The notes beneath the pieces were generated by a model. It was not told the origin of the DNA and searched no databases. It was given only the letters and a program-made list of their open reading frames with translations. Positions 24,900 to 64,000 of a stretch of DNA of 64,000 nucleotides are shown one piece after another; within the stretch, counting starts at the first letter, position 1, and each line of letters starts with the position of its first letter. Position numbers and translations under genes: made by a program. Origin of the DNA: Obrimoposthia wandeli (lineage: Eukaryota); assembly GCA_977020255.1 (NCBI GenBank), contig CDROCS010002161.1, forward strand, positions 124,001-188,000, written 5' to 3'.

Positions 24900-25450
24900 A
24901 TATATTGTATTTCTCGAATTAAAAGTATTGTTTATCTACATGTCAAGTAATAGTAAGATAGACTTAAACACTTTTTTTATGCGCAATGTTCACCATGATC
25001 GCGATATGGACAGAAAATATTTAGTAGAATTTTTAATAGATGATCACGGGAAATATTTAAGGTATTCAATCTCAATTCTGGAAAATATTTTTTAAAATCT
25101 TATACTTTTTGCCATCCATTTCATCTAAAACATAACAAATCCATTTTCAATATCAAAATTAGATTTAATTGTATCGAAAATACATATTTCACCTTCTTTC
25201 CATTTTAATAAATGAATTTTTCTTTCTTATCATATAATCTAAACTTCTAAATGGGATATCTACATAAAATATGAAATGCAAAGGATGAAAAACGTCGCAT
25301 ATATCCATAATACATAATTATTTTATAATGTAATCTCCATTTTGTTAATGAAAGCCTCAAAGTCTTCTTGCATATATTCTTGTATAATTACCCAAATATG
25401 TAGCAGATCCCTTTGTTTATAACGAATTAAAATAGAAACCAATAATCAAA
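24900..25450 (-). pseudogene. Degenerate paralogue of the DEDD-like Polinton ORF at 45692
   Basis: Reverse complement closely parallels 45710-46130 (gaggctttcattaacaaa...catcctttgcatttcata...gatgaaatggatggcaaaaagtataaga). Confidence 0.8.
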
Positions 25451-33500: not shown

Positions 33501-33508
33501 CCTCAGCA
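27528..33508 (+). repeat. Copy 1 of a ~6 kb near-identical duplicated segment
   Basis: Colinear with 37233-42558 (copy 2 lacks ~29410-30120). A ~410-bp subunit also recurs at ~27100, ~31125 and ~40176. Confidence 0.9.
29130..30000 (-). pseudogene. Degenerate hAT (Buster/Charlie-type) transposase
   Basis: Minus frames give LKKHLETKIH, FAIQIYETTDILKLTQL (cf. FALQLDETTD), RETGAKNFEIL and IFTDCA (cf. TDGA). Confidence 0.65.
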
Positions 33509-36150: not shown

Positions 36151-37232
36151 ACAGTTGACATCGCTGTCGTTGTACATCTATATAATTCTCATTTCACATT
36201 CAGACCGTCTCCAAGCATGATCAATGGAAAAGTCCGGTACCACTCAAAATGTTAGGAGGGACATCTAGAGTATCTAGAAGAACTTCCTGACATCATGTTC
36301 CAATTGTTTAGCGACAGAACTTCATGACTCATCGAGGAAGTTTTCTTTGTTTATGGAAGTAATAAAACATATTAATAATTTTGCTGGAATACAATTGTAT
36401 TTTTATTTATACTTTTCATTTTAAACAAATGAATAAAGCGAAAATACCATGGAGCTCCATAAATTATTATTCACATTGAAATATTTTCAGTACTTAATGA
36501 CCTAAGGCGTTACTATAATAATAGTATTTTAAATTTACCTAATATATTTCCTAGATAATTTATTTTCACATTTTAAGGTGTATTATTTTTTAACTTTCTA
36601 AAATTATTAATGAATAAAGGCCATTTTGAAAATATTAAAATTTATTCTATTCATCTTGCGAGTTTATCTAAACGCGGCTTCTTGTGAGGTGCCAAAATAT
36701 TTTAGATGTTGCAGAGAAAATGAAAAGTACTTAGAAATGTTCATACGGTGCAAAACAGTAATGCTAATATTTAAGAATAAATTTTATTCCATTAAAAGTA
36801 CAATATTTTTGACATGTAGTTCATTGTGTATAATGCAAAATATGGTCGAAGCTGTAATTTTCCTTTCATCAAACCAAGATTAGTAATTCATTAAAAATTG
36901 ATAGTCTGTGATCCGCGGTTCAAATTGTAAATAACCAAATATTCCAGCTCTAGCTTCTATCCACAAATACGAATATGAAAATCAGAATTTATTGAAATAA
37001 ATTCTGTGATTCATATATAATTTTTACTATATTTACTAAGTTTGTATGAAATAGTACTAGTAGGTACCACACCCAGAAAAGGTTGAGAAGCCCTGATATA
37101 TAGTAATTCAAAATTATCCAGTAATATATTGAGATAAATTTTTTCATTCAGTACTGGTTTTCTGGGTCATTGCAGTTTATTTGGGTTTTATCTTCACTCG
37201 ACACAAAATTTACGTGCTGATAGCTCTGTTAG

Positions 37233-42558: not shown

Positions 42559-42596
42559 AGTAGGTGTATGTGTCCGGTCTAATCCACACACCCCTT

Positions 42597-42678
42597 CCCC
42601 CCTGTCCTTTAAAACCGTGCATGTGTGTGGAGTGAAATTTCACTCCACACACATGCACAGTTTTAAAGGACAGGGGGG
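42597..42678. repeat. 82-bp near-perfect palindrome in the Polinton terminus
   Basis: Two 41-bp arms centred on AAA|TTT (42637/42638), with one mismatch (42616/42659). Confidence 0.95.
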
Positions 42679-42713
42679 GTCCCAAACATTTTTTTCGCGC
42701 CTATTAGCGCGAA

Positions 42714-43080
42714 AGGCTCGGGACTGGTGTATATCACAGACTTCCTTGGGTGATGGCCGAAAGTCTCGGGACTCGTGTATATCACAGACTTCCTTGGGTG
42801 ATGGGGCGAAAGTCTCGGGACTGGTGTATATCACAGACTTCCTTGGGTGATGGGGCGAAAGTCTCGGTACTCGTGTATATCACAGACTTCCTTGGGTGAT
42901 GGGCGAAAGTCTCGGGACTCGTGTATATAACAGACTTCCTTGGGTGATGGGTGAAAGTCTCGGGACTCGTGTATATCATAGACTTCCTTGGGTGATGGGT
43001 GAAAGTCGACGGATGATGGGTGAAAGTCGTTGGGTGACGGGTGAAAGTCGTGGGTGACGGGTGAAAGTCGACGGGTGATG
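42714..43080 (+). repeat. Subterminal tandem array: ~6 x 48-49 bp, then ~4 x ~19 bp
   Basis: Unit aaagtctcgggactcgtgtatatcacagacttccttgggtgatgggg(cg), followed by gggtgaaagtcg..gtga units. Confidence 0.9.
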
Positions 43081-43275
43081 GGTGTTGGTTGGGGATTGTT
43101 GGTGACTACACATGTAGACGACCCGTGTCATACCCAAGATCCTAACATACACCACCCGCCCCTTCGGGGCGGGCTTCATTCTTGATCTCCAGGCACGAAA
43201 AACATTACAAAAAATAAATTATTTGAATAAGAGGCTCTCATTGGACAATAAAAGAGGGTTAGTAAGATGTTTGTG

Positions 43276-45207: not shown

Positions 45208-45528
45208 ATGGAATTCATTAAAATGAAGAGTCTGGTAACGAAGATTGAAGCAAACATCAGAATAAATTAGAAGAAATGGTACTTAAGAAAGAGGGTCCTC
45301 AATCAGAATCTGTATGCTGCTGTCGCGACCGAGTGGAATCATCGGGTGGAGATACAAGATAGGAGGCTATCAGAACGACGTCGAATCGTGGAGTGTAATA
45401 AGAAGATCGAAATGGAAAAGAAGAAGGTGGATGAAAAAAGAAGAGAAGAGATGGAGGATAATCGTCGAGCAGCAAGAAAGAGAATCCTCCAGATAAAACC
45501 GGAAGAGGGTCCTTCTACAAAAAAATAA
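45208..45528 (+). pseudogene. Small charged coiled-coil Polinton ORF with one internal stop
   Basis: MEFIKMK...*...EIQDRRLSERRR...MEDNRRAARKRILQIKPEEGPSTKK. Homologous relic in copy A. Confidence 0.55.
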
Positions 45529-45691
45529 AATTTTGATTATTATTTTGTCTTTATTGATTATGTTACATAGGAGAATTGACAATATATACCAATCTTAACA
45601 TGAAAGATTGAATCCTGAGTACTTTGTTATTTTAATAAATTTTTGATTTTTTCGTTATAAACAACGGTATTTGCTGCAAATTTAGATAATT

Positions 45692-46180
45692 ATGCAGGAA
45701 TATATTATAGATTTTGAGGCTTTCATTAACAAAAATAGTGATTATATTATAAAAGAATTATGTATTATGGATGTATGCGACATTTTTCATCCTTTGCATT
45801 TCATATTTCAAATAGATATCCCGTTTAAAAGTTTAGATTATAAGAAAAAATTTACTAATTTATATCTAACTAATTACTTTCATTTATTAAAATGGAAAGA
45901 AGGACATAAGGCTTTTTGTGAAATATGTATTTTCGATACAATAACATCTAATTTTGATATAGAAAATGGAATTTTTTATGTTTTAGATGAAATGGATGGC
46001 AAAAAGTATAAGACTTTAAAAAAATATTTTCCTAAATTGAGATTGAATACTTTAAATATTTCACGTGATCATCTATTAAAAATTCCACGAAATATTTGCT
46101 GTCCATATCGTAATCATGGTGACCATTGCGCAGATGAAAAATGTTTAGGTCTATCTTATTATTACTTGACATGTAGATAA
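45692..46180 (+). CDS. Polinton-associated DEDD/DnaQ-like nuclease-fold protein
   Basis: N-terminal YIIDFEAF..YIIKEL (DxE motif); C-terminal CCPYRNHGDHCA, a Cys/His cluster seen in Polinton ORFs of this type. Confidence 0.55.
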   Translation: MQEYIIDFEAFINKNSDYIIKELCIMDVCDIFHPLHFIFQIDIPFKSLDYKKKFTNLYLTNYFHLLKWKEGHKAFCEICIFDTITSNFDIENGIFYVLDEMDGKKYKTLKKYFPKLRLNTLNISRDHLLKIPRNICCPYRNHGDHCADEKCLGLSYYYLTCR

Positions 46181-46349
46181 ACAATTCTTCTAATTCATAA
46201 TTTTCATTCAATTACAAATAATTCTTTTGATTGGAGAAATAAAAAATATTTTTTTCGACCATTTAACAGATAAACAATCCTTCTCAATTTTTTTAATCCA
46301 ATAGGAAAAGAGCATGTGTGCGTAAATTTTAGTTATAAGCAAACACTTT

Positions 46350-47386
46350 CTTCATTAAAATCCCCGACTATTTGAAATAATGACTATGATAAGAATCTAT
46401 ACTTATTATTTCATTATTAATATTTATTATTTCAGATTACTAGTTTATAGAAAAGAGAGAAACTGGAAGATACATTGGTTGATCTATACACATACCGACC
46501 GCGTCCCTATCTCTAGTTTCATTTTTAGATATCCATATTGTTCTCAAAAGTGGAACTCGCTGTCCTCCTACAAGCGTTGGTTCTATTAAATTAGTATAAA
46601 TATATAAATGAAAAACAGCATTTAAAAGTTTTGCCTTATTTTTAGCTTTTATGGTTTTTATTGTATGGGTTTCAAAGGTATTTCTGTTTAAACCAAGGTT
46701 TTTAGCGAGTTTATCATCAAATAAAACTCGTATTATATTGCTCTTTACTGTAAACGTTATTTTACCATTTTTTAATGTTACACATTTATCGAAATATTCA
46801 CTACATTCCTGTATTAATTTACATAAATTCACTTCACTATCTAATTTATAATCTTTTGAAAACATTTTCAGTTCCACTACATACTTTGGTCTCGTTTCAA
46901 CTAAAAACAGTTTTGTTACTCTATCAGGAACATTTTTAAACGATTTAGATGAGGTTATATCAGATCTCTTCATACCTACTACATGTCCACTGTCAAAACC
47001 GAATTGAAGAGCTTCTCTATCAGATCCAAATATAATTTGAATGGTTTTAAAAAATGTTTTAGTCTATTTTTAAATCTGACTTTGTTTTTTTCATATATTA
47101 CTTTCACTTCTTTATCTATACAATTGTAATAGAATTTTCCTTTACTATCAAACCCAATCACAACTTCAATTGATTTTTCATGATCAACTTCTTTTGTAAA
47201 CGAAATATGTGAGTTTTTTCTGATAGTAATTGGAGAATAATAAAAGGAAAATTATGTTAAAGCCGCTTCCCATTCTCCTTGGAGATTTATAGGATTTTCC
47301 CAATCGATAATAAAGCTACTAGCGTAATTATCTGGTTGAGTCTTTGGACATCCGTTACTAGGTAAAACCATATACATAGAATTCAT
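46350..47386 (-). pseudogene. Polinton minor capsid protein (penton)
   Basis: Starts MNSMYMVLPSN...NYASSF..NPINLQGEWEAAL and ends LYIYTNLIEPTLVGGQRVPLLRTI...QPMYLPV, the typical penton termini. Frameshifts and stops. Confidence 0.75.
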
Positions 47387-48412
47387 ATTATATTAGATGC
47401 TGATATCCAAGTTGGATCTGAATAACCATGCCATTTAACATAGTATTGTTTATGTTAACCGTCACCCTTAGATTTTAATATTTTTTGAATACGGAAAACG
47501 CTAGGTTTATTTGATATTACTTGTAGTTTTCGCTCGTAAAATTTACCGTGAACGATATAATTGTCAGCATCTTTAATAGTATACATTATTGGATTATTCT
47601 TTTGATCAATTTTACTTATACAAAATATTTCATCACTCCAATTCTGATCAAAGTTTTTAATAAATGGAGTAGAGCTAATTTTCGAAATTCGGACATATTC
47701 GTTTTTCTTATATTTAGCTTTTTTAATATTTTCTTTTTTATTCCTATTCATCCAAATATCCATAGAATTTTTATTAGTAACATCGACAGGTCTCATTCCC
47801 ATGAGAAATCTATGTTCAGATTGATTATAGGCATGTATTATTTTAGGTAAAACTTGGATCCATTTTTTATTTCCTTCTTTTGTGAAATACTTTTTTATTC
47901 GATCTCTTAAAGTACGATTAAATCTTTCTATTACTGCTGCTTTATACTGTGAAAACACAGAGTAGTGATTTATATTATTTTGTTTAAATAAAGATTGTAC
48001 TTGCTTATTATAAAATTCTTTTCCTAAATCAATTTGCACATTTTGTGAAATGTCCTCTTTTAATATTTCTTTAATGGCTTCAAGCATAGCTATTGAAGAC
48101 TTTGCTTTAACTGGAATTGCACGAGCAAACCTGCTAAATACATCAATACATGTTAAAATATATCAATATCCCTTATTAAAGGAAGAATATGGGATCATCT
48201 CCATCAAATCCATTTGCCATAAATTATTAGGGCCGCTGGTTTTTATAAGCTCTAGTTGGAAACCTTGTTCTCATCGGCTTGTTCAGACTGTAGGCTAACT
48301 GGTCACTCAGCCATTTCTGCGTTTTCTTGTTATTTTGTTTTGTTCTTTTTGATAATTTTGAAACTCCGGTGTAGCCAATTGGATCTTTTGGATTGAACCA
48401 TATCTTCTCCAT
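47383..48412 (-). pseudogene. Polinton retroviral-like (rve) integrase with C-terminal chromodomain
   Basis: NLWQMDL, YILTCIDVFSRFA (D1), QIDLGKEFYN (D2), KAAVIERFNRTL (E), FYERKLQ, YYVKWHGYSDPTW (chromo). Its stop overlaps the penton ATG (ATGA). Confidence 0.9.
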
Positions 48413-48498
48413 TACAACAATTTGAATAGAAAGAAAATTTAAATTTAGGTAAAGAAGGGTTAGCACCCATATCTTTAACTGATTTTATAAATAATTGT

Positions 48499-48828
48499 TT
48501 ATGAACGTGTTGCAGCTATAATACTACTGATATTTGAAGCAACAACTGGAATAACAGCCCCTATGAAACCACCATTCTGTTTAAGAATAATATTTCGTTT
48601 CCTTTTTTTACTTTTTACATTAGCAATATCTAGAAGAGTTTTTCTATATTTCTTTAATATAATTTTCCGATTTCCAACTTTTACTCGACCCAAAACTATA
48701 TTATACAAAACTTCCAATAAATCATCTACAACAAAAGATGGAAATGCTTTAAGAATAATCATTCTCTTATGAGAACAGGCTTTGACTAAAGCATTTAAAT
48801 AGGGTATGCTTCTTTGTATTTTCTTCAT
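48499..48828 (-). CDS. Small basic Polinton protein with QNGGFIG motif (putative core protein / adenain substrate)
   Basis: Lys/Arg-rich 109 aa. KQNGGF followed by a hydrophobic tail resembles the xxGG cleavage motif of adenovirus-type proteases. Confidence 0.6.
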   Translation of the reverse strand: MKKIQRSIPYLNALVKACSHKRMIILKAFPSFVVDDLLEVLYNIVLGRVKVGNRKIILKKYRKTLLDIANVKSKKRKRNIILKQNGGFIGAVIPVVASNISSIIAATRS

Positions 48829-48859
48829 TTTAATAAAAAAGGTTCAATTTGAATAATGT

Positions 48860-49000
48860 TTATATTCGAAGCCATTTAAGTTTTTTTTTATTTCTAACTA
48901 CAGATTTGATTAATTTTTTCACTTCTTTTTTCTTAATGATTCTTTTTATTGATTTCTTAGGATTTGCTTTACGTTTTACTATAAACTTCTTAAAAGGCAT
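48860..49000 (-). CDS. 46-aa Lys-rich ORF (putative DNA-condensing core protein), below ORF-track threshold
   Basis: MPFKKFIVKRKANPKKSIKRIIKKKEVKKLIKSVVRNKKKLKWLRI*, between the ATPase and the GGF ORF, same strand. Confidence 0.45.
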   Translation of the reverse strand: MPFKKFIVKRKANPKKSIKRIIKKKEVKKLIKSVVRNKKKLKWLRI

Positions 49001-49049
49001 TATAAATTTATCTTTTATGATTGTTATCTATTTGTTTATAAACAGTTAC

Positions 49050-49664
49050 TCCCTTAGAATTAAATATATGGGTTAAAACACGTAAATCATCTTGGCAAGC
49101 TTGTGTAAAGTCAATAAATATATACCCATGTGCTTGTTTAGCAGCATCGTGGAATGAATCAACTAGAAAGTTCTTATTTTAGGGAAATGCCTGTCTGGCC
49201 ACAAAATCAACAACTGTTTGATCTCTAGGATTTTTAAATAAAACTAAGTAATGCACATTAAAATTTCTAGTTCTATGGTGACCTCCTTGGTGAAAAGGAT
49301 TTTGAGTGATAAATATAACTGTTACTTCACGATGTCTTGCAATCTCGTAAATAAATTATTAAAGTCCGATTCCTTGTTAGCTTCCTGATACAAATCATCA
49401 ATTATTTTTACATCTTCTTTTTTCAATCTTTCCCACCAATTTGCATCAAATCCTTCTGTTGGGGTTTCTATATGAAACTTATAGATCCTCTTGAATGTGG
49501 AGGGCCCCAACGTGAGTTCTTATAGAAGCAGGACTTAAGGATGGTTGTGGCCTACTTAATGTTATAGTTGCCTGTCTCAATTCTTATCTGAAAGTGTTTG
49601 TTTTCCGATGTCTTTTAATCTGAAGGGTTTAGAACAACGCTTTCTAATGTAGGAAATCGTTTAT
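49050..49664 (-). pseudogene. Polinton FtsK/A32-like packaging ATPase
   Basis: Degenerate Walker A (VVLNPSD*KT), Walker B IIDDL, NLFTR-(fs)-RHREVTVIFITQN, HYLVLFKNPRD, RQAFP, HGYIFIDF. Confidence 0.85.
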
Positions 49665-49818
49665 TGTTAACACACTAAACTAGCACAAAGCAATACGTTT
49701 ACGTACGTATTTCTAAAAAGTTACAGTAAATTCCTAAGACTTCTGTAAGTCTCTACACAAGTGGGGATGAACCACGTATCGATTCTAATTTAGGTTTGGT
49801 TAATTTCGTAGAGTCTTT

Positions 49819-50430
49819 ATATGGGCAATTCAAGTTATTCAAAATTTCACGATTTACTTTAAACTCTTTCAATATAGGCAATTCAAGTTATTCAAAATTT
49901 CACGATTTACTTTAAACTCTTTCAATATAGGCAATTCAAGTTATTCAAAATTTCACGATTTACTTTAAACTCTTTCAATATAGGCAATTAAAGTTATTCA
50001 AAATTTCACGATTTACTTTAAACTCTTTCAATATAGGCAATTCAAGTTATTCAAAATTTCACGATTTACTTTAAACTCTTTCAATATAGGCAATTCAAGT
50101 TATTCAAAATTTCACGATTTACTTTAAACTCTTTCAATATAGGCAATTCAAGTTATTCAAAATTTCACGATTTACTTTAAACTCTTTCAATATAGGCAAT
50201 TCAAGTTATTCAAAATTTCACGATTTACTTTAAACTCTTTCAATATAGGCAATTCAAGTTATTCAAAATTTCACGATTTACTTTAAACTCTTTCAATATA
50301 GTCAATTCAAATTATTCAAAATTTCACGATTTACTTTAAACTCTTTCAATATAGGCAATTCAATTTCACAATTTACTTTAAATCAATATATGACAATTCA
50401 CTTTCACAATTTACTTTAAATCAATATATG
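49819..50430 (+). repeat. 53-bp tandem array (~10 near-identical copies) plus two degenerate ~38-bp units
   Basis: Unit gcaattcaagttattcaaaatttcacgatttactttaaactctttcaatatag at 49825, 49878, 49931 ... 50302. Confidence 0.95.
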
Positions 50431-51448
50431 ACAATTCACTTTCACAGTTTTACTTTGAATTGTTATACTTCTTACACGAAATGGAAAGCCGTCCGTTGTT
50501 CGATTCGCAAGAGTCCTGGTATCAGTGGTGCTGCTCGCGCTGCGTATGAGATTGAGAGCCGTTCGATCCTTCCTGGCTTGGCTCCGACTTGTCTGAGGGC
50601 GCGATTCGATTTTGTGTTGTCTTCTTCTTATCGACTTATATTCTGGCTATTCTTGTTTGTTTCTGGCCATTTATATAAGTCCAATTTTCCTCCATATCCG
50701 CCCCTCCTCGAGTGATAAGTGCTTCTAATTGATTCCTGTCTGCACTTGCTCAGCAGGCTCGGCTGCTCGCCTTCTCAGTTCCTAGAATGATCTAAAACAG
50801 AGCACTTAACAAAAGCACTTACTTGTAGACAGCCGTCCAAGTTCCCTGTGCGGCTCTGTACAGTAATGGATTATTGCTGGATTTCTTCTTAATTGAGTGA
50901 CTGACTCAACTCTCCAAAATGAGTTAATTAATTCCTTAAATTCGTTTAATTTGGACTTTCTTAACCGGCTAATTCTGTTTTTTGGGGCCCTTTTTGTTAA
51001 CGTTAACTTCTATAAATACTTACACATCACACACGACCTTCGTGGTCCCTAAATATTTTATTACAATTTTAATCTCATCAATTTCAATTTTGATATTAAA
51101 TTTATCTAATTCTAACCTTGCTTTCAAGGATTTCTATTTCACTATAAAATCAATTAATTATTTAATTTATTTCAAAACCTAAACCTAACATATCTCGGGG
51201 GTTCTAAAAAAGTTACGTCCCCGGAACGTATCGATTAAATTTACTAGCCTCTGGACTACTGATTTTAAATCATCCCCACTAATTTCAATCATTCAAAACT
51301 CATCAACATGTCTAATGTTCAACAAAATTCGGAACTACTGCCAAGATAGTGAATAAATCGGACGAAGTCACAAATATTCACTACATATATTATACACAAG
51401 TGTTTTAGAAAAGGAAAGGGGCAGGAAAGGATGAAATGTAACGTTTTA

Positions 51449-53061: not shown

Positions 53062-55437
53062 TCATGTCTTGATGGGAGGCGGAGGTAAGGGTCGCAATTC
53101 CACTTCCTCCATTGTGGGTGTGTTACAGCATCGCAGTCCTTCGCATTTCCGTCGTATTCTTGGGCATACCTGACAGCCTTTCACGCACACGACTGTCAAG
53201 AGAACTACTGCTGTTGACACTACTGCCATTCCAATTAGAGCATTGACCGCTGTTATTCCGCTGTCCGATGATTGGTAATCATACTTCATTTTGTTGTTTG
53301 TCGGTTTGAATGGCGTTTCCATTGGTGTTGATCGGTTTCCATGTATTATGTCCGATTTTCTAATAACTCGCGGATTTGGATATTTTGTTTTCGGTCTAAC
53401 AGGTATTATTAATTGAGATTGGAAATGATATTTGGGATCTAGTGGAATCGTTCCCTTCACTCTTGTCCTCTTAATAATTGTACTTTGGTTTCTGGGATCG
53501 AGCTCTTTTCCTTTCACTTCTGCCTTTGTTATGATTACTTTTGGCTTCTCGGAATGGCGTTTACTTCCGTTTACCTTTGCCTTCTTTTTGACTATGATTG
53601 GTTTTTTGGAGTAGCGTTTACTTCCTTTCACCTTTTCATTTTTTATGACTATGATTGGTTTTCCGGGAATGATTTTCCTGGGTTTGATATTTATACTGAG
53701 TCCACGAAATCGACGTGTCTGGTATCTTAGAGTTATGTAGTATATTTCACCTGTTATTAATATGATTATGGTAGAGGTCTCTCTAGCATTGCTGGGAATT
53801 CGGTTACATAGACATTCTGTATCAAAATGTGGTACTAACATTTGGTTTTGAATTTCAAATCTGATTCCACCATCTGGATTGGGACACGACACTGTTACTT
53901 TGTCAGTTTCTAACAATCTGAAGAATAATCTAACGGAATTCCATACGGTTTTACGTCGTCTACCTGTGATCATAATCCTGTCGACAACTTTCCAGATGTG
54001 CTCGTCGTTAGGCAATATTAATGACTTTGTTCGGATAAATTGAATAATCCGTTTCCTTTTTGATATTGTTATTCGTAGGTATAATACATTTTCATGGTAG
54101 AATAATATCAGTCGGTAGTAAAGTTTGTGTTGGTCAATCTTTATTTTGATCTGGCGAATGACATACGATTTCTGATCGACATTTTCGGTTGCTGATGTTT
54201 GTAGGTGAATGTCTATTACGTAATTTGCTTTTATTAGAGGTATTTTTATGGATAACGCCCGTATCGTATCTTGTCTCCATTTACTGATCATGATCTCATA
54301 ACCAGCCTCGGTCGTGGTGATTTGCATGATCAGCATGATTCCTATGATCGTCTGGTTCCTAATCTCAGGAACATCTCTAGGATAACTCAAGTTACTCATG
54401 TAGTATGGTTTTTCCTCGATATGTTCGTATATCGTTGGCTGATACTCTGGTGCTGGTTCATTTAGGAATGCTGGTCTTGGTATCATTGTGTTGAATTTTT
54501 GTAAATTCATTTGACCTGCTTGTCTTGCGAGATCATGACGTTTCTTTTTCGATCTCAACTCTATCTTTGTACAACAAAACAAAATGAGCAATATTATTAT
54601 TATGACTCCGATAGTCAATGCTAGTATTGGATTAACCAATTCTAGAATACCATAACGTATTGCTGGTATCCCTTTACTCTTGATGGTTAATATTTTAAAT
54701 TTATGTGTACTTTGGTTGGACATGTCACTGAGAAGTACTATTTTAGTTTGTCCAAATGTGTATCCTTCACATGTGACAACACTAATTCCATAATGTCCAT
54801 TTAGTGTTTCCATTTCGGTCGCTGGGATTACACATATTCGTCCTGGACATCCTTTCACACACATGATCATCACGGCTTTACTATAAGACGTCTTGATTAT
54901 TTCTAGGGTGTTGTCTAGATTTCTCAGATGTAGATTATATCCAGGTAGCGTCATCAATTCAGCTTTACTGGTTGGAATGGCTTGTAGTACCAATCCAATT
55001 ACTACTCTGTAGATCAATCCTTGTGTAACAGTGCACAGGGCCTTGATTGTCCTTTTGCAAAGGGTTTTGATTATTATTCGTTTGAGAGACATCTGTTTCT
55101 GGTTAGGTCGTTTTGTCTGGTTTGTCTGTCGTTGCTTTGACATTTCTTCAATTCCAGTTTTCCTGATAATCAACTGTACCTGTTTTCCTTGTATCATCAA
55201 CTTTCCGAATCCATTTTTGGCGGACAAGCATGTTTTATGTCCTTCCATCGTTTCGATTATCACTCTCTTACTTCCATACTCACGTGTTTTGATGACATCG
55301 CCGTCGAATATGTACGTCGTACCTTTTGTATCCGCATCTTTTTGTATTTCCTTTACAATTCGTTTTCTTTGCCTGCATCCTGTGAACATTGCTGATATTC
55401 TATCAAGTGTGCGTTGTCGGTCAGCTTCATAATCCAT
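53062..55437 (-). CDS. 791-aa multi-segment membrane protein in the env position (not a recognised env class)
   Basis: Hydrophobic segments VVIGLVLQAIPTSKA, LALTIGVIIIILLILFCC, IIGIMLIMQITTTEA and ALIGMAVVSTAVVLLTVVCV. Cys-containing ~105-aa segment between the first two; basic KVKGSKR repeats. Confidence 0.7.
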   Translation of the reverse strand: MDYEADRQRTLDRISAMFTGCRQRKRIVKEIQKDADTKGTTYIFDGDVIKTREYGSKRVIIETMEGHKTCLSAKNGFGKLMIQGKQVQLIIRKTGIEEMSKQRQTNQTKRPNQKQMSLKRIIIKTLCKRTIKALCTVTQGLIYRVVIGLVLQAIPTSKAELMTLPGYNLHLRNLDNTLEIIKTSYSKAVMIMCVKGCPGRICVIPATEMETLNGHYGISVVTCEGYTFGQTKIVLLSDMSNQSTHKFKILTIKSKGIPAIRYGILELVNPILALTIGVIIIILLILFCCTKIELRSKKKRHDLARQAGQMNLQKFNTMIPRPAFLNEPAPEYQPTIYEHIEEKPYYMSNLSYPRDVPEIRNQTIIGIMLIMQITTTEAGYEIMISKWRQDTIRALSIKIPLIKANYVIDIHLQTSATENVDQKSYVIRQIKIKIDQHKLYYRLILFYHENVLYLRITISKRKRIIQFIRTKSLILPNDEHIWKVVDRIMITGRRRKTVWNSVRLFFRLLETDKVTVSCPNPDGGIRFEIQNQMLVPHFDTECLCNRIPSNARETSTIIILITGEIYYITLRYQTRRFRGLSINIKPRKIIPGKPIIVIKNEKVKGSKRYSKKPIIVKKKAKVNGSKRHSEKPKVIITKAEVKGKELDPRNQSTIIKRTRVKGTIPLDPKYHFQSQLIIPVRPKTKYPNPRVIRKSDIIHGNRSTPMETPFKPTNNKMKYDYQSSDSGITAVNALIGMAVVSTAVVLLTVVCVKGCQVCPRIRRKCEGLRCCNTPTMEEVELRPLPPPPIKT

Positions 55438-55680
55438 TCAGAATTGATTCAGTAGTCGGTTTTGTGGATAAAATATTGCTTCATTCACTATGTTATCCTC
55501 GATCCTTTCGTCTAAATACACAAGTACTTGGTTTGTTGGTCCATTTGGTCTCTTCATCTTTACAAACTGGAATCTTTTACTATCGGTTCTCATAGATCGG
55601 AGACATTTTCGGATAAGCCAAACATCAATTAGTCCTATCAACACTAATAGCATCATCAGTGCCGGTGTATTGTACTGCAT
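55438..55680 (-). CDS. 80-aa ORF with N-terminal hydrophobic segment
   Basis: ALMMLLVLIGLIDVWLIRK. Same frame as both flanking large ORFs; its stop abuts the next ATG (TGAATG). Confidence 0.5.
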   Translation of the reverse strand: MQYNTPALMMLLVLIGLIDVWLIRKCLRSMRTDSKRFQFVKMKRPNGPTNQVLVYLDERIEDNIVNEAIFYPQNRLLNQF

Positions 55681-55737
55681 GATTTAGTTGTTGATTTCTT
55701 TGAACCATGAACTATTTCCGTGGTTGGAGCCTATCTC

Positions 55738-58700
55738 TTATGCTCCCGTTATCGGCATTAGACAACTTAACAAGCCTAGTGCTAGCAATCTTTGGTATTG
55801 ATAGCTGGGCACTGATGTTGTAGCTTCATTTGTTTCTCGTTGTTGCTTCCTCTTTTCGGAGTATTTCTCTATTTCTCGAACGAGTAACGGTTTGAATTCC
55901 GTATCTGGTCTATTCTGTTTGGTGTAGACCATCGCTTCCTCTGGTGTATGACCATGGTACTCTACCAACAAGGATACACCTATGGTAGGCGCTAACATTG
56001 TACCTTTTTTCTGATATATCAGAACGCCGTTTCCTTCTGTGACTTCGGCTTGGATGGTTTGAGTCAGTTTCATCAGATGTTGTTGTGCATCGTTTATCTC
56101 CCGATTGGAAGCATGTATGTATCGAGTTGTGTCATCTTCAGTATTTTGACACAGGCTGATTATTTCATTTCCGACTTCAACAATGTTAATTACTCGGTTG
56201 ATACTGTGGAACTTTAATCCAGCAGTATCTATATCTCCTGGATGACATAGAAATACTTTCGGCATTATCTGAGTAATTTTGTCGACTCCGGCTAAGAATA
56301 AACCGGTCAACGATAGTGATTGGAGGAAATTCTTTTCCTTTGGATCCTCAGGGATGTCATCCATCCGTCTCTGTTCTTGCAACAGGAGTTGGTAATTTGA
56401 CAATTGTCCCAAAAAATTAAGGTTTGGGTTCGCGATACTTCGTTTTTCCTGTAGGTATTTCAGCGCTTCTAGTACCTGCATTCGTCTAGTCTTTATTAGA
56501 TATGCTAATACTAGGGTTGCTGATCGGGAGATTCCTTTCTGACAATGTACCAACACTTTTCCTTGGTTTTGGAGTTCTCTGTGAAGTATCTCGTTTGTTT
56601 CTACGAACCATTCGAGAAGATTAGCCTCCATTGAGTCTTTTACTCTTAATGTCATAGCTCTGATAGTCTGATATTGTGATTTGTGATTCATTGTAACATT
56701 GATCACGTATGTTATCCCTTGTTCCAACAGTTTCTTTTCGTCTGTTGCATCTTCCACATTTCCGAGGTATAACTTATCTGGAATGATCTCACTCATTGGT
56801 GGCATTAATTCTGACTCTTCAAGTTTTAGTCTTTCTAATCTCTTCTCTAGTTGTTCGTCGACGATGGATAATTTCGCCAGTTTCCTTCCTCTCAGCATTC
56901 GTATCGCTGGAGAGATATTCGTCTTTGTCTCTGATGTCTGTTCCTTTGTTGGTTCCTCTTCCGACTCAGTCTCTTCTGCGGATTTAATTCGTCTTTCTTG
57001 TATATTATGTTTCACGAATTCTATGATTCGTCTTTTTCTACTCTCTTTAGCTAATTCAACCTCCATGGTTCTTCCGAAACGCTCTATTATGTTATCTTCG
57101 GATTCTGTTGACTCTGGATCGCTACTTTCAAGTTCGCTATCTTGACTAGACTCGCTCGAAGGGTATTCTGGTATGTCTGTCTGAACTGAAATTAATGAAG
57201 GGGTTAGAATAATTGGATTGACTGGTCCTGCGTGTCTGAGAATCGGATACGGTATTTCACTATCCTTAAGTATCTCAACTTGGAACTGTGCTCCATAGCA
57301 CATGACAATTGTTTCCAATTTACCCATGATGGACAATCCATCAAAATAGGTGACACTCAGCTTAGATATCGGTGTTTTCGCATAATTAACTAAATGGACT
57401 CGTATCTCGGTTGATGACGGCCATCGATTTTTTAGTAAAATTATAATTTCGTCCTTTATCGATGTAATCACACTTGGCGCGGATGATACTATTTCAGCAT
57501 GATATTTTGGTTTGATTGAGGTTGTCACTTGTTCTCGGATCATATTGATTCGTTGTGGTTTATTTTTAGCTTCCCACTTCCGGTATCCGCTGTCAATGCG
57601 TAACTCTGCCGTTGCTTTAATGATTTTATTGTTTGTTATTTCTGGTTGGGTTGGCGAATGAAATACTTCTATTACGCTCAACCTTACAGATACTTCCGTT
57701 TGATCTGTGTTTAATTGGTGAGATTCCGGTATACTACATACAATGGTCTTTCCGTCAAAGTATTTGGTGTCCATCTGACATATTATCTTTTCAGTGTCAG
57801 CGTCGATTAAATGAACTCTCATTATGTCTCTTCTCCCATGTGAATTACGTAATACCATTATTACATCGTGGTATTCTTGTTTGAGTCTTTTTAGTGTACC
57901 ATGAAGTATGTGACCACCGGTCGGTTCTTTTTCTTCCTGACTGGCTAGTCCTGCTTCAGTACTGTCATAGTTCTGCCATGCAACTATGTTTGGTGTTAAT
58001 GTGATTTCGATTATCACTTTCTCAGTTGTAAACACATTGGAGTTTAGATGCAGTTCTGCAACTAGTGTATTTCCGTCGAAGTATGACACTCTAAGTTCGC
58101 ATAGAAATTCGTTTGTCAGTGCATCTTTCACAATGACTTCTTTCGCCACATCTGTTGGTTGTGTTTTTTCGAAAACGACTATGATCTCTTCGTTTTCTTC
58201 CAATATCTCTTGTGGTGCGATGTGTCTGATCTTTTCTTTTTCCTCTTGGTGCTTCATTCTGAGCATGCCAATTCTTGCTGGTTTTTTCTCGTTACCACTT
58301 GTCATCGTATTTATGTAGTTTCGATCACTTACCATTCGTGTAAGTTTAATGGTATTGGTATTCGGCTTCAATTTCTGTGATCTTAGCTCATATCGTGACG
58401 CATTATCTTTATTCGGTACTAGTTTACATCGATTCGCATGTACAATCATTGGTTCCTTGTTCCGGTTCTCCTCGTTGATTACTTTCAAGTTCGTTGAGAT
58501 TGTCTGTATCACCTTGTATGGTCCTTTGTATGGTCTATGAAGTTTAAACGATAGACCTGGTTCGATGACTGGATAAAATATCATCACTTGATCTCCGACT
58601 CTAAATTCAAGTGGTTTTGCCTTTTTGTCATATTGTTCCTTGTAACCTTCTTGATTGAATTTCAGTTTCAATCCTGCTTTAGTCCAAGCATCTTGTAATC

Positions 58701-59511
58701 TTTCTTTCATAACGACAATGTATTGTTCAGTTTCTAGATACTGAGATGTTGGTTCAGTCCACTCCAGATCCATTGGCATATTGTTCTGTCTGAGATACAT
58801 CAGATAGAATGGTGTGTGACCCGTCGCCTCTCGAACTGAATTCCTGTAAGCATATAAACATGAAGATAAATATTTATCCCAATCCTCTGAGCAATAGGAT
58901 TGTACCATCATACATAAAGTTTTATTAAACCTTTCTACTAGACCATCGGTTTGTGGGTGATATGGTGAAGTTTGTAACTTCATGATTCCGAATATCTTCG
59001 ATACTGCTTTTATTACTTCTCCGGTGAAGTTCTTACCTTGATCCGTTAACAACTTTCTAGGCACTCCGTATCGAAATATTATATCTTCCACTAAGATCTG
59101 CGCTATTGTTTCAGCCTTCTGGTTTTGCATGGGATATGCTTCTACCCATCTCGTCATGTAGTCCGTAAATACTATGACGTACTTGTTTCCTTTACCTGAT
59201 TCTCTCAATAGTCCCAATATATCCATCGCTGTGAATTCCATTGGTGCCAAAGGAACTGGCATTGGTTTCAGTGGAACTTTAGTACGAGTTCCAGTGTCTT
59301 TTCTGGTTAAACATACTTTACATTGTTTACACCATTGTTTTATGTCGTCTTCCATACCATCCCAATGGTACTTCTCTTTGATTCTGGCTATTGTCTTTCG
59401 TCCTGACAGATGTCCTCCTAGTGTTCCATCGTGATACTGGATCATCACTGCTGTTTTCAATGACTTCGGAATTACTACTACTATCTTTCCGACATTGTTG
59501 ACAATATACAA
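55738..59511 (-). CDS. Ty3/gypsy integrase fused to 3 x YFDG domain, dual-specificity phosphatase, pseudophosphatase and a hydrophobic C-terminus
   Basis: H..GGH...C..C zinc finger, AMDILG / TDQGKNF / TDGLVERFN (DDE), YKGPYKV (GPY/F). DSP core LYLGN...VLVHCQKGISRSAT...NPNLNF; second DSP-fold copy with VLIYQKKGTMLA. Confidence 0.92.
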   Translation of the reverse strand: MYIVNNVGKIVVVIPKSLKTAVMIQYHDGTLGGHLSGRKTIARIKEKYHWDGMEDDIKQWCKQCKVCLTRKDTGTRTKVPLKPMPVPLAPMEFTAMDILGLLRESGKGNKYVIVFTDYMTRWVEAYPMQNQKAETIAQILVEDIIFRYGVPRKLLTDQGKNFTGEVIKAVSKIFGIMKLQTSPYHPQTDGLVERFNKTLCMMVQSYCSEDWDKYLSSCLYAYRNSVREATGHTPFYLMYLRQNNMPMDLEWTEPTSQYLETEQYIVVMKERLQDAWTKAGLKLKFNQEGYKEQYDKKAKPLEFRVGDQVMIFYPVIEPGLSFKLHRPYKGPYKVIQTISTNLKVINEENRNKEPMIVHANRCKLVPNKDNASRYELRSQKLKPNTNTIKLTRMVSDRNYINTMTSGNEKKPARIGMLRMKHQEEKEKIRHIAPQEILEENEEIIVVFEKTQPTDVAKEVIVKDALTNEFLCELRVSYFDGNTLVAELHLNSNVFTTEKVIIEITLTPNIVAWQNYDSTEAGLASQEEKEPTGGHILHGTLKRLKQEYHDVIMVLRNSHGRRDIMRVHLIDADTEKIICQMDTKYFDGKTIVCSIPESHQLNTDQTEVSVRLSVIEVFHSPTQPEITNNKIIKATAELRIDSGYRKWEAKNKPQRINMIREQVTTSIKPKYHAEIVSSAPSVITSIKDEIIILLKNRWPSSTEIRVHLVNYAKTPISKLSVTYFDGLSIMGKLETIVMCYGAQFQVEILKDSEIPYPILRHAGPVNPIILTPSLISVQTDIPEYPSSESSQDSELESSDPESTESEDNIIERFGRTMEVELAKESRKRRIIEFVKHNIQERRIKSAEETESEEEPTKEQTSETKTNISPAIRMLRGRKLAKLSIVDEQLEKRLERLKLEESELMPPMSEIIPDKLYLGNVEDATDEKKLLEQGITYVINVTMNHKSQYQTIRAMTLRVKDSMEANLLEWFVETNEILHRELQNQGKVLVHCQKGISRSATLVLAYLIKTRRMQVLEALKYLQEKRSIANPNLNFLGQLSNYQLLLQEQRRMDDIPEDPKEKNFLQSLSLTGLFLAGVDKITQIMPKVFLCHPGDIDTAGLKFHSINRVINIVEVGNEIISLCQNTEDDTTRYIHASNREINDAQQHLMKLTQTIQAEVTEGNGVLIYQKKGTMLAPTIGVSLLVEYHGHTPEEAMVYTKQNRPDTEFKPLLVREIEKYSEKRKQQRETNEATTSVPSYQYQRLLALGLLSCLMPITGA

Positions 59512-60310
59512 GATTTCTTATTTTATCGAGTATTTTTTTCATCATTTCATCATTTAGATCTCCTTTCACTAACAATTCTTTGATTAGACTCAGTTCTTCA
59601 TCTTCTTTCTGTTCCTTTATGATTTCTTTGTCTATTTTACCCGTCTTCAGCAAAATCGTTAGTAGATTTGCATCTCCTTTTTGGTCGTTGGTTTCATCTT
59701 CTTCTGGAATTATGTTTCCTTTCTCGTCTACATTTGTCAACCTCGACAAACAGTCTGCGTTGCCATTCGACTTTCCGGTTCTATAACGGATTTCTAGATA
59801 GAATTCGGCCAATTTCAGAAACCATCTGTTTAATCTACTCATCTCGTCTCTATGTTTATACAAGAACTGTAGTGGTTTGTGGTCTGTATACAGGAATACC
59901 TTTTGTCCTAGCAAGTATTGTCTGTACTGTCTACATGAATATACTATGGCTAGACATTCCTTTTCGATGACAGAGTATCCTCTTTCGGCTCTGTTTAATC
60001 CTCTACTCGCATACGCGAAGACGTGTTCTCTTCCTTCGTCATCCTCTTGTCCCAATACTGCTCCTACAGCATAGTTACTTGCATCTGTCATTAGTATGAA
60101 TTGTCGGTTTATATCTGGAAACGCTAATATTGGTGCTTTTATCAGTCTTTCTTTTAAATGCTCGAACGCTTGTTGTGTTTCTTTTCCCCATATGAACTTC
60201 TCATCTTTTCTCGTCAACTTTTTCAATGGTGTTGCTATATCTGAAAAATGTTCAACAAATCGTCTATAATAGTTCGGAAGACCTAAAAAACTCTGTATTT
60301 CCTTAACAGT
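59327..60310 (-). pseudogene. RT connection and RNase H of the Ty3/gypsy pol (disrupted)
   Basis: VKEIQSFLG, ILMTDASNYAVGAVLGQ, YSVIEKECLA, YTDHKPL, YRTGKSNGNADCLSR. TAG at 60311-13 and a frameshift near 59535. Confidence 0.92.
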
Positions 60311-61540
60311 CTATGGCGCTAAATGCGCTTTTACTTTCTCGATCTTTGCTGGATCAGGTCGAATACCTTCTTTCGATACTATATGTCCTAAAAATGTTAC
60401 TCGCTCTTTAGCCCATTCGCATTTTGTAGGTTTAACTTTTAATTTAGCGTTTTCCAGTCTTTTAAATACAACTTCAAGATTTTTTAAATGTTCTTCGAAC
60501 GTCTTCGAAAATATTATTATGTCATCGATATAAACCATCGTGTTTGCACACGATGCGAGTACAAAATTCATGCAACGCTGAAATGTTGCTGGTGCTCCTG
60601 TCAGTCCGAATGGCATTTTTTCGCATTCGTATAGTCAATCTCCGCAGGAAAAGGCTGTTTTGTGTTTATCCTCTTCCTCTATCTCGATTTGCCAGTATCC
60701 ACTCTGCAAATCCAATGTCGTGAAATAATCTGAATTACCTAATTTATCAAGCATCTCTTCAATTCTAGGTAATGGATACACATCTTTTCTTGTGATCTTG
60801 TTCAGTTCTCTGAAATCTATACAGAATCTTATTTTTACATCCTTCTTTTTAACCAACACCATAGGTGCTGAGAATGGTGAAAAATTCGGTCTAATTACTC
60901 CTGTTTTAGACATATCTTCAATCTGACTTTTTACTTCATCTTGTAACTGTAATGGTACTCGATATGGTCTTCTTCTGACTACTTTGTCTTCTGTCAGCGG
61001 TATTGTGTGTTTTATGACAGGTGTTTCTCCTATGTCATATGGATTTTTTGCAATTACTTTTGGAAATTTATGTATTAGATCAAGTAATTGTTTCTTTTCT
61101 CTAGTTGTCAGTCTTTCTGATTGGATTACTATTTCTTCGTAATCATTCGTGTCTTTATCGAGTTTCATAGCACACACAGTGGGATTCTCCATCTGTGCTA
61201 TCTTTCCCAACCTCATTCCTCTGTATAACAGGACGTCGTTGTTGGTTGTATTCATCAGTCTAACTGGTATTTTGTGGTTTTCAATCAGATATACTGTACT
61301 CACAATTGGTAATTCATATTTTTCTATGAAATCCCGTGATGGTTCGAACACAACTGGTCCTTTATCTTCTGATAATGTGTGGCCTTGAATAAGAAATTGT
61401 GATCTTTTACCGATTTTTATAGGATTTTCTATAATTACATCAATTTGATTTATCTGTCTGTTTGACGTACTATCTTTCAATCTTGGATCTTGTAAATCGA
61501 TACTTATCACTTTGAGTTGTGATAGTACATCCATTCCCAA
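60311..61540 (-). pseudogene. Reverse transcriptase of the Ty3/gypsy pol (one in-frame TGA)
   Basis: RRRPYRVP, FCIDFRELN, YPLPRI, LDLQSGYWQI, TAF...MPFGL, YIDDII. TGA at 60635-37. Confidence 0.95.
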
Positions 61541-61623
61541 ATTGTAGGTTCAGGACATTCTTTCATGATTCTAACTGGTATAGTGATCGTATTACGTCCA
61601 ATTATAAATGTACATGGTAATAT

Positions 61624-62330
61624 TCACGTCACTTTTACAGGGTCTCCGTTGACCGATACCAAGAATTCATCTGGTTCTGCCATTGTTCGTTTCTGTTCCT
61701 CTGTCAAACAATCTTCACTTACTATCGAAGCTACAGCACCTGTATCAATTAAGGCTTTTACTCTTAAATTATTTACTCTAATGATAGCTGCTGGTCGCTG
61801 TGCTCCATTTATATTTCCCATATGGTATATTGTATTTATTGAGTTATTAAATTCTGTCTGTCCACTTCCTTTGTTTGGATAGTGAAATCTAATATTTCTC
61901 ACTTTTCGATCTATTATCCTTCTACAAATCGGACATGATACCATTTCCTTCGCACATCTCCGACATGTTCTCACATGTCCGCATGGTAAAAAGGCAACTT
62001 CTATTTTGTTGACCATGCAAACTGCGCATTCCGGATCTTCTAGTACGTATTCTAGTTCGTTTATGTACTCTTTCTCTTTTGTTTCAATTGTACTGTCATC
62101 TTTATCTTTTAGTAATTCAAAAATTGATCCGTATCCGTTTCGCGTAGTTTTTATTTTTAATTCTACCAAATCTATGATTCTTTCTGCTTCTTTTGGATAT
62201 AGTCTTCTCACGAATGACACTACCGGTGTGTCTTGTTGAGCCAAAATCTCTTTCCGTGTGATTTGGTATTCGATTATACATTCGGTTTTTTCTGTTCTTT
62301 TTGCTTTATTTTGTTTTTAAAAATACAAAA
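61624..62330 (-). CDS. IAP-type RING finger directly followed by retropepsin protease
   Basis: CAVCMVNKIEVAFLPCGHVRTCRRCAKEMVSCPICR (C3HC4, IAP/MDM2 type), then VKALIDTGAVASIV. Frame open upstream to ~62330. Confidence 0.9.
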
Positions 62331-63163
62331 TTCGCAAAATTCATGATGTAAAGTTTTCTTAGGCAACTCGAGAGTATATCTGTCTTTGATTCGTTCTTTT
62401 TTACACTTGTGGCATTTAATCACGTCTTTACCATCCTTTTTATAGCAAAAAGTCCCTTTTTTGCCAATTTTTTAAGTCTTGGATCTTTGAAAGTTACTTC
62501 TCGATATTGTTCGTCACATTCGTTTACTTCTCGCATTACTTCGAATATGTCCTCAATTTGACTGTTTGTTATCACTCTGCCTACTATTAAAGCTGATTCT
62601 CCTTCTGGAATCTCATCACTGTTATCGAAATCGGGTGCTTTCCCCCTTTGAATTTCTGGTACGTTTGAAGTTTTCAGTTTCAAAAGGAATGGACAATTTG
62701 GTGCATCTCTTTTATGACGTTTCATTGGGTTTTCATTGTTTTCCCAATTTCTAAATTTTACTCTACACCATACGCATCGTACTACTCTCTCAGAACCATA
62801 ACTATTTGTCGTGTCTAACATTTGCAACCCTGTTCTCGCCATTTTACGTGACATTTCTTTTGAATAGTACGGTTCTAGTGATCTTCGTCTATTTCTCTCG
62901 AATCTAAGAGGATCTCTTTCTAATAGATTCACATATGTTATTTTCCTCCTCGTCGTAGTTTGTAGTTCGTCGTCTACTCCTTTGTAGTGAAGTATCGACT
63001 TTACTAGCACTTCCTGTTTCCTGTTTTGGTACGGATTTCCCATACGGAACATAGTGTATTTTTCCTTTTCAACTATAGGTCCTCTCAACATTTTTATCTC
63101 TCTCACTGAACTGTCGTTCTTAAAACTCTTGTTGTTTGGTAATATTATTATTCCTTCAAACAT
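62330..63163 (-). CDS. BIR domain(s) of an IAP module in the retroelement polyprotein
   Basis: BIR1 has the exact C-x2-C-x16-H-x6-C spacing (CVWC...H-KRDAPN-CPFL). A second, degenerate BIR (LAKKGLF..[fs]..DVIKCHKC...HHEFCEF) spans a frameshift at ~62435. Confidence 0.85.
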
Positions 63164-63231
63164 TCGTATTACTCCATTCCAATCATGACTGGACTACCAC
63201 AATCTGTGAATATTCTAGCATTTAACTGCAA

Positions 63232-64000
63232 TGTATTATTCAACTTTACAATACCTCGTTTATACTATTATATATAGTTGAGTTATTACATTAGTTATGT
63301 TAGCCTCTGATACGTGTACTATTAACAGAGTAGAACTCACTGAGGGTTATAGGCTAAATAATGACACTAACTATACACTAAAATGTGAAATATACAAGTA
63401 TAAAAGTGGGAAATTAATAATTTGTTATTGTACTGTGCATCGACACTGTCGATTGGGTCGGACCGATGCTAAGATAGTCATCAGTGAAAATTTACTAAAA
63501 ATGTAATAGATACGATGATGAGATATTTGGTCTAAATAATTGAATGCTCACTTCAAACTAAGGTATTAGTAACGAATGAAAATTACACATAAATATTTGA
63601 ATTTGGTTTAAAAAACAAAAAAATTGCATAAATTTTGTCAAGGAACTTTTGAAAACTATTCTTTCTTAGAAGAAAAAAGATTCACAGAGTCTTAAAAATT
63701 CGTTCAAAGCATAATGTAGTTTTATTCCAGAAAGATTCAGCAGATGAAATGTATATTCGAAATTACTCAGATAGTTAGCTTTAAACGTTGCCCCAAGAAA
63801 TTTTATTATTTAAACAATGACAACGAAAAATGATTGTTATTTCCCAATCCAATTTCATTTCCATTTTGCCATATATTTCTATTGACTAAGTCAAGAAATA
63901 GACTTTTATGACATTTGTTTATGTAGTATTCACTAGACACGTGTGTATTTCATGTAATGGCGTACCGAAGGCATATTGGATTCGGAAGATGGCTTCAAAT
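63232..64000 (+). repeat. Third partial copy of the duplicated segment
   Basis: Matches 32156-~33215 and 41212-~42260, with an internal deletion of ~290 bp. Confidence 0.9.

Follow-up and report, generated by a model that had tools for sequence, protein, structure and literature searches.

The window analysed here, a 64-kb stretch of contig CDROCS010002161.1 from Obrimoposthia wandeli (assembly GCA_977020255.1), carries on its minus strand a decayed retroelement in which a Ty3/gypsy integrase shares a reading frame with two dual-specificity phosphatase (DSP) domains. The frame (59517-55738) is stop-free for 1,259 codons from stop to stop; it lacks a start of its own and opens at the frame change leaving the RNase H region. 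Pfam recognized Integrase_H2C2, rve, and two DSPc stretches (E 3.6e-40) in these 1,259 codons, and the order along the frame is integrase, three TIG/IPT-like repeats, a first DSP (DSP1), and a second (DSP2). An original prediction, made from the sequence alone, had described an unbroken 1,257-residue integrase open reading frame (ORF) fused to an active phosphatase and a pseudophosphatase. The integrase ORF was confirmed, as were the motifs HCQKGISRS (56547-56521, the position it had given), VKDS (56643-56632), and IYQKKGTML (56019-55993), all in a single stop-free frame; the length is corrected to 1,259 residues from stop to stop. The frame is indeed free of internal stops, but this is unremarkable, as 15% of simulations reached an open run of at least 1,259 codons (nine breaks in 3,377 codons; P 0.15), and the idea that selection kept the long ORF open was rejected as unsupported.

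DSP1 (56371-56799, minus strand; residues 907 to 1049) appears to be an intact dual-specificity phosphatase and is predicted to be active. Its score was 168.5 bits when compared with a profile built from 155 DSP domains, which were taken from the matches of DSP searches, and its catalytic set is complete, with the general acid Asp961 (in VKDS) and the HCxxGxSRS loop (HCQKGISRS). It keeps 25 of the 27 family-conserved columns, which is also the family median, and all hydrophobic columns (37/37), while its identity to any match is at most 46% among the matches listed. An LNFL docking motif of the MKP type (F/L-N-F-L/M) lies at residues 1033 to 1036 (56421-56410), and the domain carries PNLNFLGQL, which fits the pattern PNxNF[LM]GQL. 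No Pfam Rhodanese match was obtained in the ORF at E 0.05. The earlier description of DSP1 as active is thus borne out for the catalytic residues, all of which are present, and is a prediction from sequence as regards activity itself.

DSP2 (55840-56280, minus strand; residues 1080 to 1226) aligns end to end to the 155-domain profile (30.9 bits). Scored by itself, the domain reached 36.5 bits, compared with at most 9.9 for 1,000 shuffles and 1.9 for the reversed sequence, and on its own it matched Pfam DSPc with E 1.1e-5. The loop substitutions are in register (His to Tyr, Cys to Gln, Arg to Leu, and Ser to Ala), the general acid Asp is replaced by Asn1138, and the PNxxF motif is likewise gone; 29 of 37 hydrophobic columns are kept but only 8 of 27 conserved ones. 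The full-length profile alignment agrees with the earlier claim that DSP2 keeps the fold without the catalytic Cys and Arg, and adds Asp and His to the losses. The register of its loop is slightly corrected: the nonamer opposite HCQKGISRS is YQKKGTMLA (56016-55990), not IYQKKGTML. By its sequence, DSP2 is a true pseudophosphatase, with the fold kept and Asp, His, Cys, and Arg lost. An AlphaFold2 model of both DSPs (26-row alignment) had a mean pLDDT of 85.6 and a DSP-like order of strands and helices in both halves; because DSP alignments went into it, the model cannot count as separate evidence for the fold, and a single-sequence fold had a pLDDT of 39. The best PDB match of DSP2, DUSP28, was weak (E 0.002). 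Origin of DSP2 by tandem duplication of DSP1 was not shown, DSP1 ranking 46th of 156 neighbors of DSP2 (23/141 residues identical). The codon at the catalytic Cys position differs between DSP2 and DSP1 at 3 of 3 bases, whereas just 16 of the 206 invariant columns are changed in the pol of this copy relative to its relatives (9/82, 3/43, and 4/81); the loss of the DSP2 active site therefore seems older than the decay of the copy, and while the element was still active, DSP2 would already have been catalytically dead and retained for its fold.

The integrase (58414-59472, minus strand) has an H2C2 domain, a DDE core with the triad present, and a C-terminal domain, as judged from Pfam and comparison with relatives; H2C2 and rve span residues 16 to 368, and about 540 residues separate the integrase from DSP1. 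Within this interval lie three units of about 85 residues, which the original prediction does not mention, at 57982-58236 (beta-rich, with a YFDG motif), 57643-57921, and 57238-57507, all on the minus strand, whose mutual matches exceed all 1,000 shuffles. Their putative assignment as TIG/IPT-like follows an Atlas lead (0.87; 10 of the 10 best family matches in one clan); Pfam, PDB, and PHROGs searches with the repeats were all empty. Repeat 1 also matches residues 1326 to 1412 of P0222, the polyprotein of a sister element, above all 1,000 shuffles, while no match to P0222 was seen for repeat 3 (72 of 1,000 shuffles reach its score). In P0222 the homologous unit is followed by ankyrins in the same post-integrase slot, so at least one cargo unit beside the DSPs appears to be common to the sister element. 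Pairing of TIG and ankyrin domains recalls NF-kB/IkB; a PDB search with P0222 returned only reverse transcriptase (RT) and integrase among the matches listed. The ORF ends in a hydrophobic, signal-peptide-like stretch (55741-55791, minus strand), recognized by eye and below the hydropathy threshold used, at the point where relatives start a membrane protein.

The remainder of the element, all on the minus strand, begins with an ORF containing a BIR, the inhibitor of apoptosis (IAP) repeat (62420-63193; Pfam BIR E 2.5e-12); a second BIR-like Cys/His piece beyond the frame change matches the first with an E of only 0.17. A C3HC4 RING and the N-terminal half of an aspartic protease (DTG) follow, up to a frame change (61624-62316; Pfam zf-C3HC4_3 E 4.5e-13, gag-asp_proteas E 5e-4). 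Next come an insert common to the clade and the RT (60311-61549), the latter broken by stops at 60637 and 60313. The insert occupies the dUTPase-like slot of Burro, a giant gypsy-like element of planarians, and is homologous in 14 of 15 relatives, but no dUTPase match to it was obtained in Pfam, PHROGs, or NCBIfam. The end of the RT and the RNase H (59518-60310; Pfam RT_RNaseH E 8.6e-38) lead to the frame change near 59517. On the other side of the DSPs, the pol frame resumes past stops at 55740, 55686, and 55440 in ORFs of 81 and 791 residues with three membrane-like segments (53062-55683); the Atlas linked them only weakly to viral glycoproteins (0.83, recognition 1650), and comparison with the ectodomains of relatives gave one weak stretch only (E 0.009 to 0.013). 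Three short paralogous RING-finger ORFs, recognized by Pfam (52986-52636, 52635-52270, and 51996-51640), sit between the long ORFs and the 3' long terminal repeat (LTR) and are more G+C-rich than pol. A purine-rich tract (50709-50697) borders the putative 3' LTR (50696-49496; 1.2 kb), the ends of which, TATGGAGG...CCTCCACA, are complementary at 7 of 8 positions; no second LTR lies within the 64-kb window, so the assignment is inferred. A 53-bp tandem array, mostly 98 to 100% identical, occupies 49814-50460 within this LTR.

The pol order protease-RT-RNase H-integrase, with an H2C2 and DDE integrase, is that of Ty3/gypsy elements. Besides the five stops, the copy has frame changes near 62420, 62316, 61549, and 59517. 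Its 5' side is joined at 63232 to the middle of a different repeat, of which two more copies occur in the window, and since the copy is 5'-truncated there, gag, any envelope gene (env), and the 5' LTR are missing; 13.7 kb survive, in flanks of about 28% G+C. By its sequence, the element belongs to a Burro-like Ty3/gypsy clade and is represented here by a decayed copy that has lost its 5' part. With its upstream pol frame broken and its 5' end missing, this copy cannot make the DSP protein by the normal route. The DSP region itself contains no intron and no frame break, and both DSPs (A content, 0.38 to 0.39) have the same A-rich makeup as the RT, RNase H, and integrase. We consider it very probable that the DSPs are long-resident cargo of the element rather than part of a late chimera.

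Relatives were taken from a search with the RT-RNase H region, in which 120 of 5,387 matches were listed; all counts among relatives rest on these 120. The nearest were 15 polyproteins with a single RT, 57 to 64% identical in this domain (P0216, P0218, P0219, P0222, P0224, P0234, P0237, P0243, P0244, P0247, P0248, P0249, P0252, P0253, and P0255); one is labeled as a bacterial-bin sequence. In an RT-RNase H tree of 34 rows (the element, the 15 relatives, and 18 chosen outgroups; quick search only), the element and the 15 relatives group together with an SH-aLRT of 98. A Monjiviricetes-type fusion protein precedes the protease in frame in 9 of the 15. Among the 14 relatives with an integrase, 4 have an extra protease after it and 11 a membrane-like stretch, by eye usually a signal peptide, an ectodomain, and an anchor; ankyrins follow the integrase in P0222, and Ig domains do so in P0249 and P0255. 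The clade also shows up to three protease domains per polyprotein and C2H2 fingers before the protease. No description of the relatives' tail of signal peptide, ectodomain, and anchor was found in the literature searched.

Because the relatives vary after the integrase, this region is best read as a cargo slot in a polyprotein that needs processing. The fusion to integrase of the original prediction is most likely polyprotein linkage, since the integrase of relatives runs in frame into extra proteases and signal-peptide or membrane proteins; a lasting fusion is unlikely for the same reason. A short motif, I-x-M-[LIF], stands at module borders (residues 416, 657, and 872), preceding TIG1, TIG3, and DSP1; it was picked by eye (4 found versus 1.6 expected), and in P0222 it precedes the protease, TIG, ankyrin, and second protease modules. 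The case for release from the integrase nevertheless comes from the architecture of relatives, not from mapped sites. We think it probable that the polyprotein is cut and that the DSP1-DSP2 tandem works apart from the integrase, perhaps anchored on the cytosolic side of a membrane through the hydrophobic tail, which might double as the signal peptide of the next protein.

The donor of DSP1 appears from its matches to have been a cellular DUSP. The best PDB sequence match is MKP5/DUSP10 (E 3.7e-25), and the best single-domain match among those listed is P0027, a rhodanese-DSP protein (46% identity). Kinship with VH1 or baculovirus protein tyrosine phosphatase (PTP), which the original prediction had proposed to examine, was not seen: DSP1 is 38 to 40% identical to MKP5, 21 to 24% to poxvirus and baculovirus DSPs, and at most 33% to any listed viral DSP, which points to an independent capture, here inside a retroelement polyprotein. 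In structure searches, which covered the first DSP domain only, the matches were MKP-2 (Z 26, 34%), the baculovirus phosphatase BVP (1yn9; Z 16, 19%), and PIR1 (4mbb; Z 14.8, 15%). The pattern PNxNF[LM]GQL occurs in 37 of 56 domains from rhodanese-bearing matches versus 16 of 99 others. The tests are split on whether the donor belonged to the MKP or the atypical subfamily.

According to the passages of PMC4802042 on MKP5/DUSP10 and MKP7/DUSP16, the F/L-N-F-L motif of the MKP catalytic domain alone docks JNK1, with Leu first in MKP5; the rhodanese domain is dispensable for JNK, and the MKP7 catalytic domain lowers UV-induced apoptosis. The catalytic triad, the fold, and L-N-F-L are common to these enzymes and DSP1, which in contrast has no N-terminal rhodanese domain and is followed by a dead second DSP. 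In light of those results, a captured catalytic domain could act as a JNK phosphatase even without the rhodanese part and would not require DSP2 for targeting. The idea that DSP2 is a targeting domain found no supporting evidence; the catalytic domains of MKP5 and MKP7 bind JNK unaided (PMC4802042).

Active and inactive phosphatase folds are also combined elsewhere, and the order differs between systems. Receptor PTPs place the active D1 before the dead D2, the same order as DSP1-DSP2. In Cdc14, with domains A and B, the dead domain comes first; this reversed order, together with an identity of 15 to 16%, gives no support to the Cdc14-like precedent suggested for DSP2. STYX differs by a single Cys change, and the loss in DSP2 (Asp, His, Cys, and Arg) is larger. 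Viral immune kits (VH1 of poxviruses, PTP and IAP of baculoviruses, and PTPs and vankyrins of polydnaviruses), whose products act as immune antagonists, follow a logic like that of the phosphatase and IAP-like module here and the ankyrins of the sister element.

Among retroelements the closest parallel is Burro/GYPSM1, for which the review section in PMC6431247 describes a long polyprotein with the order protease-insert-RT-RNase H-integrase, BIR and RING cargo, and tandem repeats, all as here. It gives Burro a Gag with CCHC knuckles, an ORF of about 4,900 to 5,100 residues, and a length above 30 kb, with env in frame before the protease, an order shared by relatives of our element, one of which also has ankyrins. 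The RING is of the C3HC4/IAP-like type here and of the AIR1 type in Burro, and that section lists no phosphatase and no TIG domain; the comparison is by description, not by sequence, and no named Burro sequence was among the 120 RT-RNase H matches listed. The mention of extra domains in Burro in the original prediction thus led to the right type of element but to no phosphatase in the Burro section (PMC6431247). The MATH, BCL2, Smc, and ankyrin cargo of Burro was not found by Pfam in the surviving 13.7 kb, from which the upstream part is missing. In GAG-ENV-POL errantiviruses with a class III env (PMC13524379), env precedes pol as in 9 of the 15 relatives; env is absent from the truncated copy here, and the passages concerned mention no post-integrase cargo.

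Our combined results are consistent with a model in which a giant Ty3/gypsy element of the Burro-like kind carries the DSP pair as accessory cargo. By means of its LNFL motif, DSP1 would dock on and dephosphorylate stress MAP kinases, namely, JNK and perhaps also p38. During expression of the element, DSP1 and the IAP-like BIR-RING module would together prevent the death of the host cell and hold down its stress or immune response. DSP2 would be a noncatalytic partner, whether scaffold, stabilizer, or decoy, and of all the steps in the model its role has the least support. That the pair is released, host-directed, antistress and antiapoptotic cargo beside the IAP-like module seems to us an evenly balanced proposition, and action of DSP1 on JNK or p38 through LNFL, with BIR-RING sparing the host cell, falls just short of that. 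The original idea of a phosphatase that damps stress signaling fits the BIR, the RING, the three RING ORFs, and LNFL.

Several results weigh against this model. The pTM of the AlphaFold2 model was 0.60, so that the relative orientation of DSP1 and DSP2 is not fixed by it. A blind search that learned a cleavage motif from the relatives did not reproduce the I-x-M-[LIF] motif chosen by eye, and the learned motif showed no preference for linkers (p 0.8, with 2 of the top 10 there). In three DSP trees (156, 43, and 31 rows, the last with 12 rows dropped, including long branches and P0109, the former partner of DSP1), DSP1 fell outside the MKPs, a position that lacked strong support, and in approximately unbiased tests the MKP grouping was neither rejected nor shown (p 0.47; with P0027, p 0.55). 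A two-class profile put DSP1 on the atypical side at -64 bits, a score below which only 1 of 49 MKP-type domains fell and above which 33 of 79 atypical domains lay, and in rare-residue sharing the atypical DSP P0109 ranks above P0027. The integrase-DSP architecture is known from one defective copy only: no DSP was seen in any of the 120 listed pol matches (0/120), and none of the 168 DSP matches from two protein searches matches the integrase or the middle region. Residues 300 to 1235 gave 0 of 3,106 candidates among proteins of 2,205 to 5,000 residues, which is weak evidence.

The same subfamily tests favor an alternative that we regard as fairly unlikely, namely, that DSP1 is an atypical DUSP without MKP ancestry, its LNFL convergent, acting on a host phosphoprotein other than a MAP kinase and still manipulating the host, as poxvirus VH1 does on STAT1. 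The trees that put DSP1 among atypical domains, the two-class score, the top rare-residue partner P0109, and the missing rhodanese domain all speak for it; set against them are the enrichment of PNxNF[LM]GQL in rhodanese-bearing matches, the MKP-type best matches, a gain of 1.79 log units over the free tree when DSP1 and P0027 are held together, and a tight MKP profile that gives even the rhodanese-bearing P0027 only about 0. A further alternative is a phosphatase that stays on the integrase or in the particle and controls integration or uncoating by dephosphorylating integrase or Gag, with DSP2 and the TIG repeats as a tether. The open frame shared with the integrase and the negative blind cleavage test agree with this, and C-terminal modules, chromodomains among them, are known from Ty3/gypsy integrases, but we judge it rather improbable given the roughly 540 residues between integrase and DSP1, the continuation of the relatives' frame into membrane proteins and extra proteases that need cutting from the integrase, and the lack of a DSP with all 14 close integrases among the matches listed.

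It is also improbable that DSP1 is a mere passenger, a host DUSP caught in frame in this lineage or copy without benefit while DSP2 simply decayed, or that the arrangement is an assembly chimera. The single copy amid nested repeats, 5'-truncated at 63232, and the lack of a second example in protein searches would suit such an origin; conservation of DSP1 like that of a typical family member, yet at no more than 46% identity to any match, retention of length and core in DSP2 after loss of its active site, a base makeup matching pol, and the sister-element homolog of the adjoining TIG-like unit argue against it. We regard as very improbable that DSP1 is an RNA 5'-triphosphatase like BVP/PIR1, concealing the RNA of the element from small-RNA pathways or triphosphate sensors: the superfamily is the same and the activity might suit an RNA-packaging element, but the structural matches to BVP and PIR1 lie far below that to MKP-2, and the loop and C-terminal motifs are of the protein-DUSP type.

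The original prediction had asked whether integrase-DSP fusions are limited to this copy, and so far the copy is single. Against proteins of 692 to 2,204 residues, the DSP region gave 18 matches, all cellular-type DUSPs, and a search of 1.84 billion representatives with the 416-residue DSP region, the only search to cover proteins shorter than 692 residues, found no integrase-DSP protein among the best 150 of 20,944 matches; all searches were at the protein level. The literature searched contained no account of an LTR element with a phosphatase domain, although Grohme 2018 with its supplements, or Repbase, could describe one. In term searches, "phosphatase" occurred 0 times in PMC6431247, PMC6338049, PMC5408684, and PMC13238120 and 0 times in the text and seven supplement files of PMC13524379.

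Apoptosis- and ubiquitin-related cargo of giant gypsy elements is known, and meddling with host pathways has been proposed and called hard to test in the pertinent section of PMC6431247. A small, soluble, assayable enzyme would make that idea testable. A phosphatase would join the list of LTR-element cargo, and the locus offers a natural pair of active and dead DSPs for the study of pseudophosphatases. We speculate, while thinking it somewhat unlikely, that the post-integrase region of this clade of giant enveloped gypsy elements is a swappable cassette of host-signaling antagonists and surface proteins. In the element described here it would comprise a JNK phosphatase, a pseudophosphatase partner dedicated to it, TIG repeats, and IAP-like and RING modules, and in the sister element, TIG and ankyrins. 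If so, retroelements would carry an immune evasion kit like those of baculoviruses and polydnaviruses, and DSP1 would be the first signaling phosphatase from an LTR element.

Other features of the window include Polinton/Maverick-like remnants beside the LTR end (45400-49495), with an rve integrase (47455-48162), a weak adenovirus pX-like ORF (48499-48843), and a broken frame at about 49070-49495 that we take to be packaging-ATPase-like, an assignment not confirmed by searches; the element seems to be inserted into this frame. The segment 45400-46196 has an inverted copy at 24916-25937. A weak DNA_pol_B_2 match on the plus strand (8833-9315; E 1.2e-4) is probably also Polinton derived. Fragments of a more distant gypsy RT/RNase H, 29 to 38% identical to the DSP-bearing element, lie on the minus strand at 14532-15667, and an uninterrupted 520-residue protein kinase ORF with divergent-looking motifs occupies 5177-6739 on the plus strand (Pfam Pkinase E 5e-25). 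Recent near-identical duplications (93 to 100%) were found at 27085-33508, 37229-42559, and 63232-64000, and a palindrome followed by 48-bp tandem repeats lies at 42597-43084.

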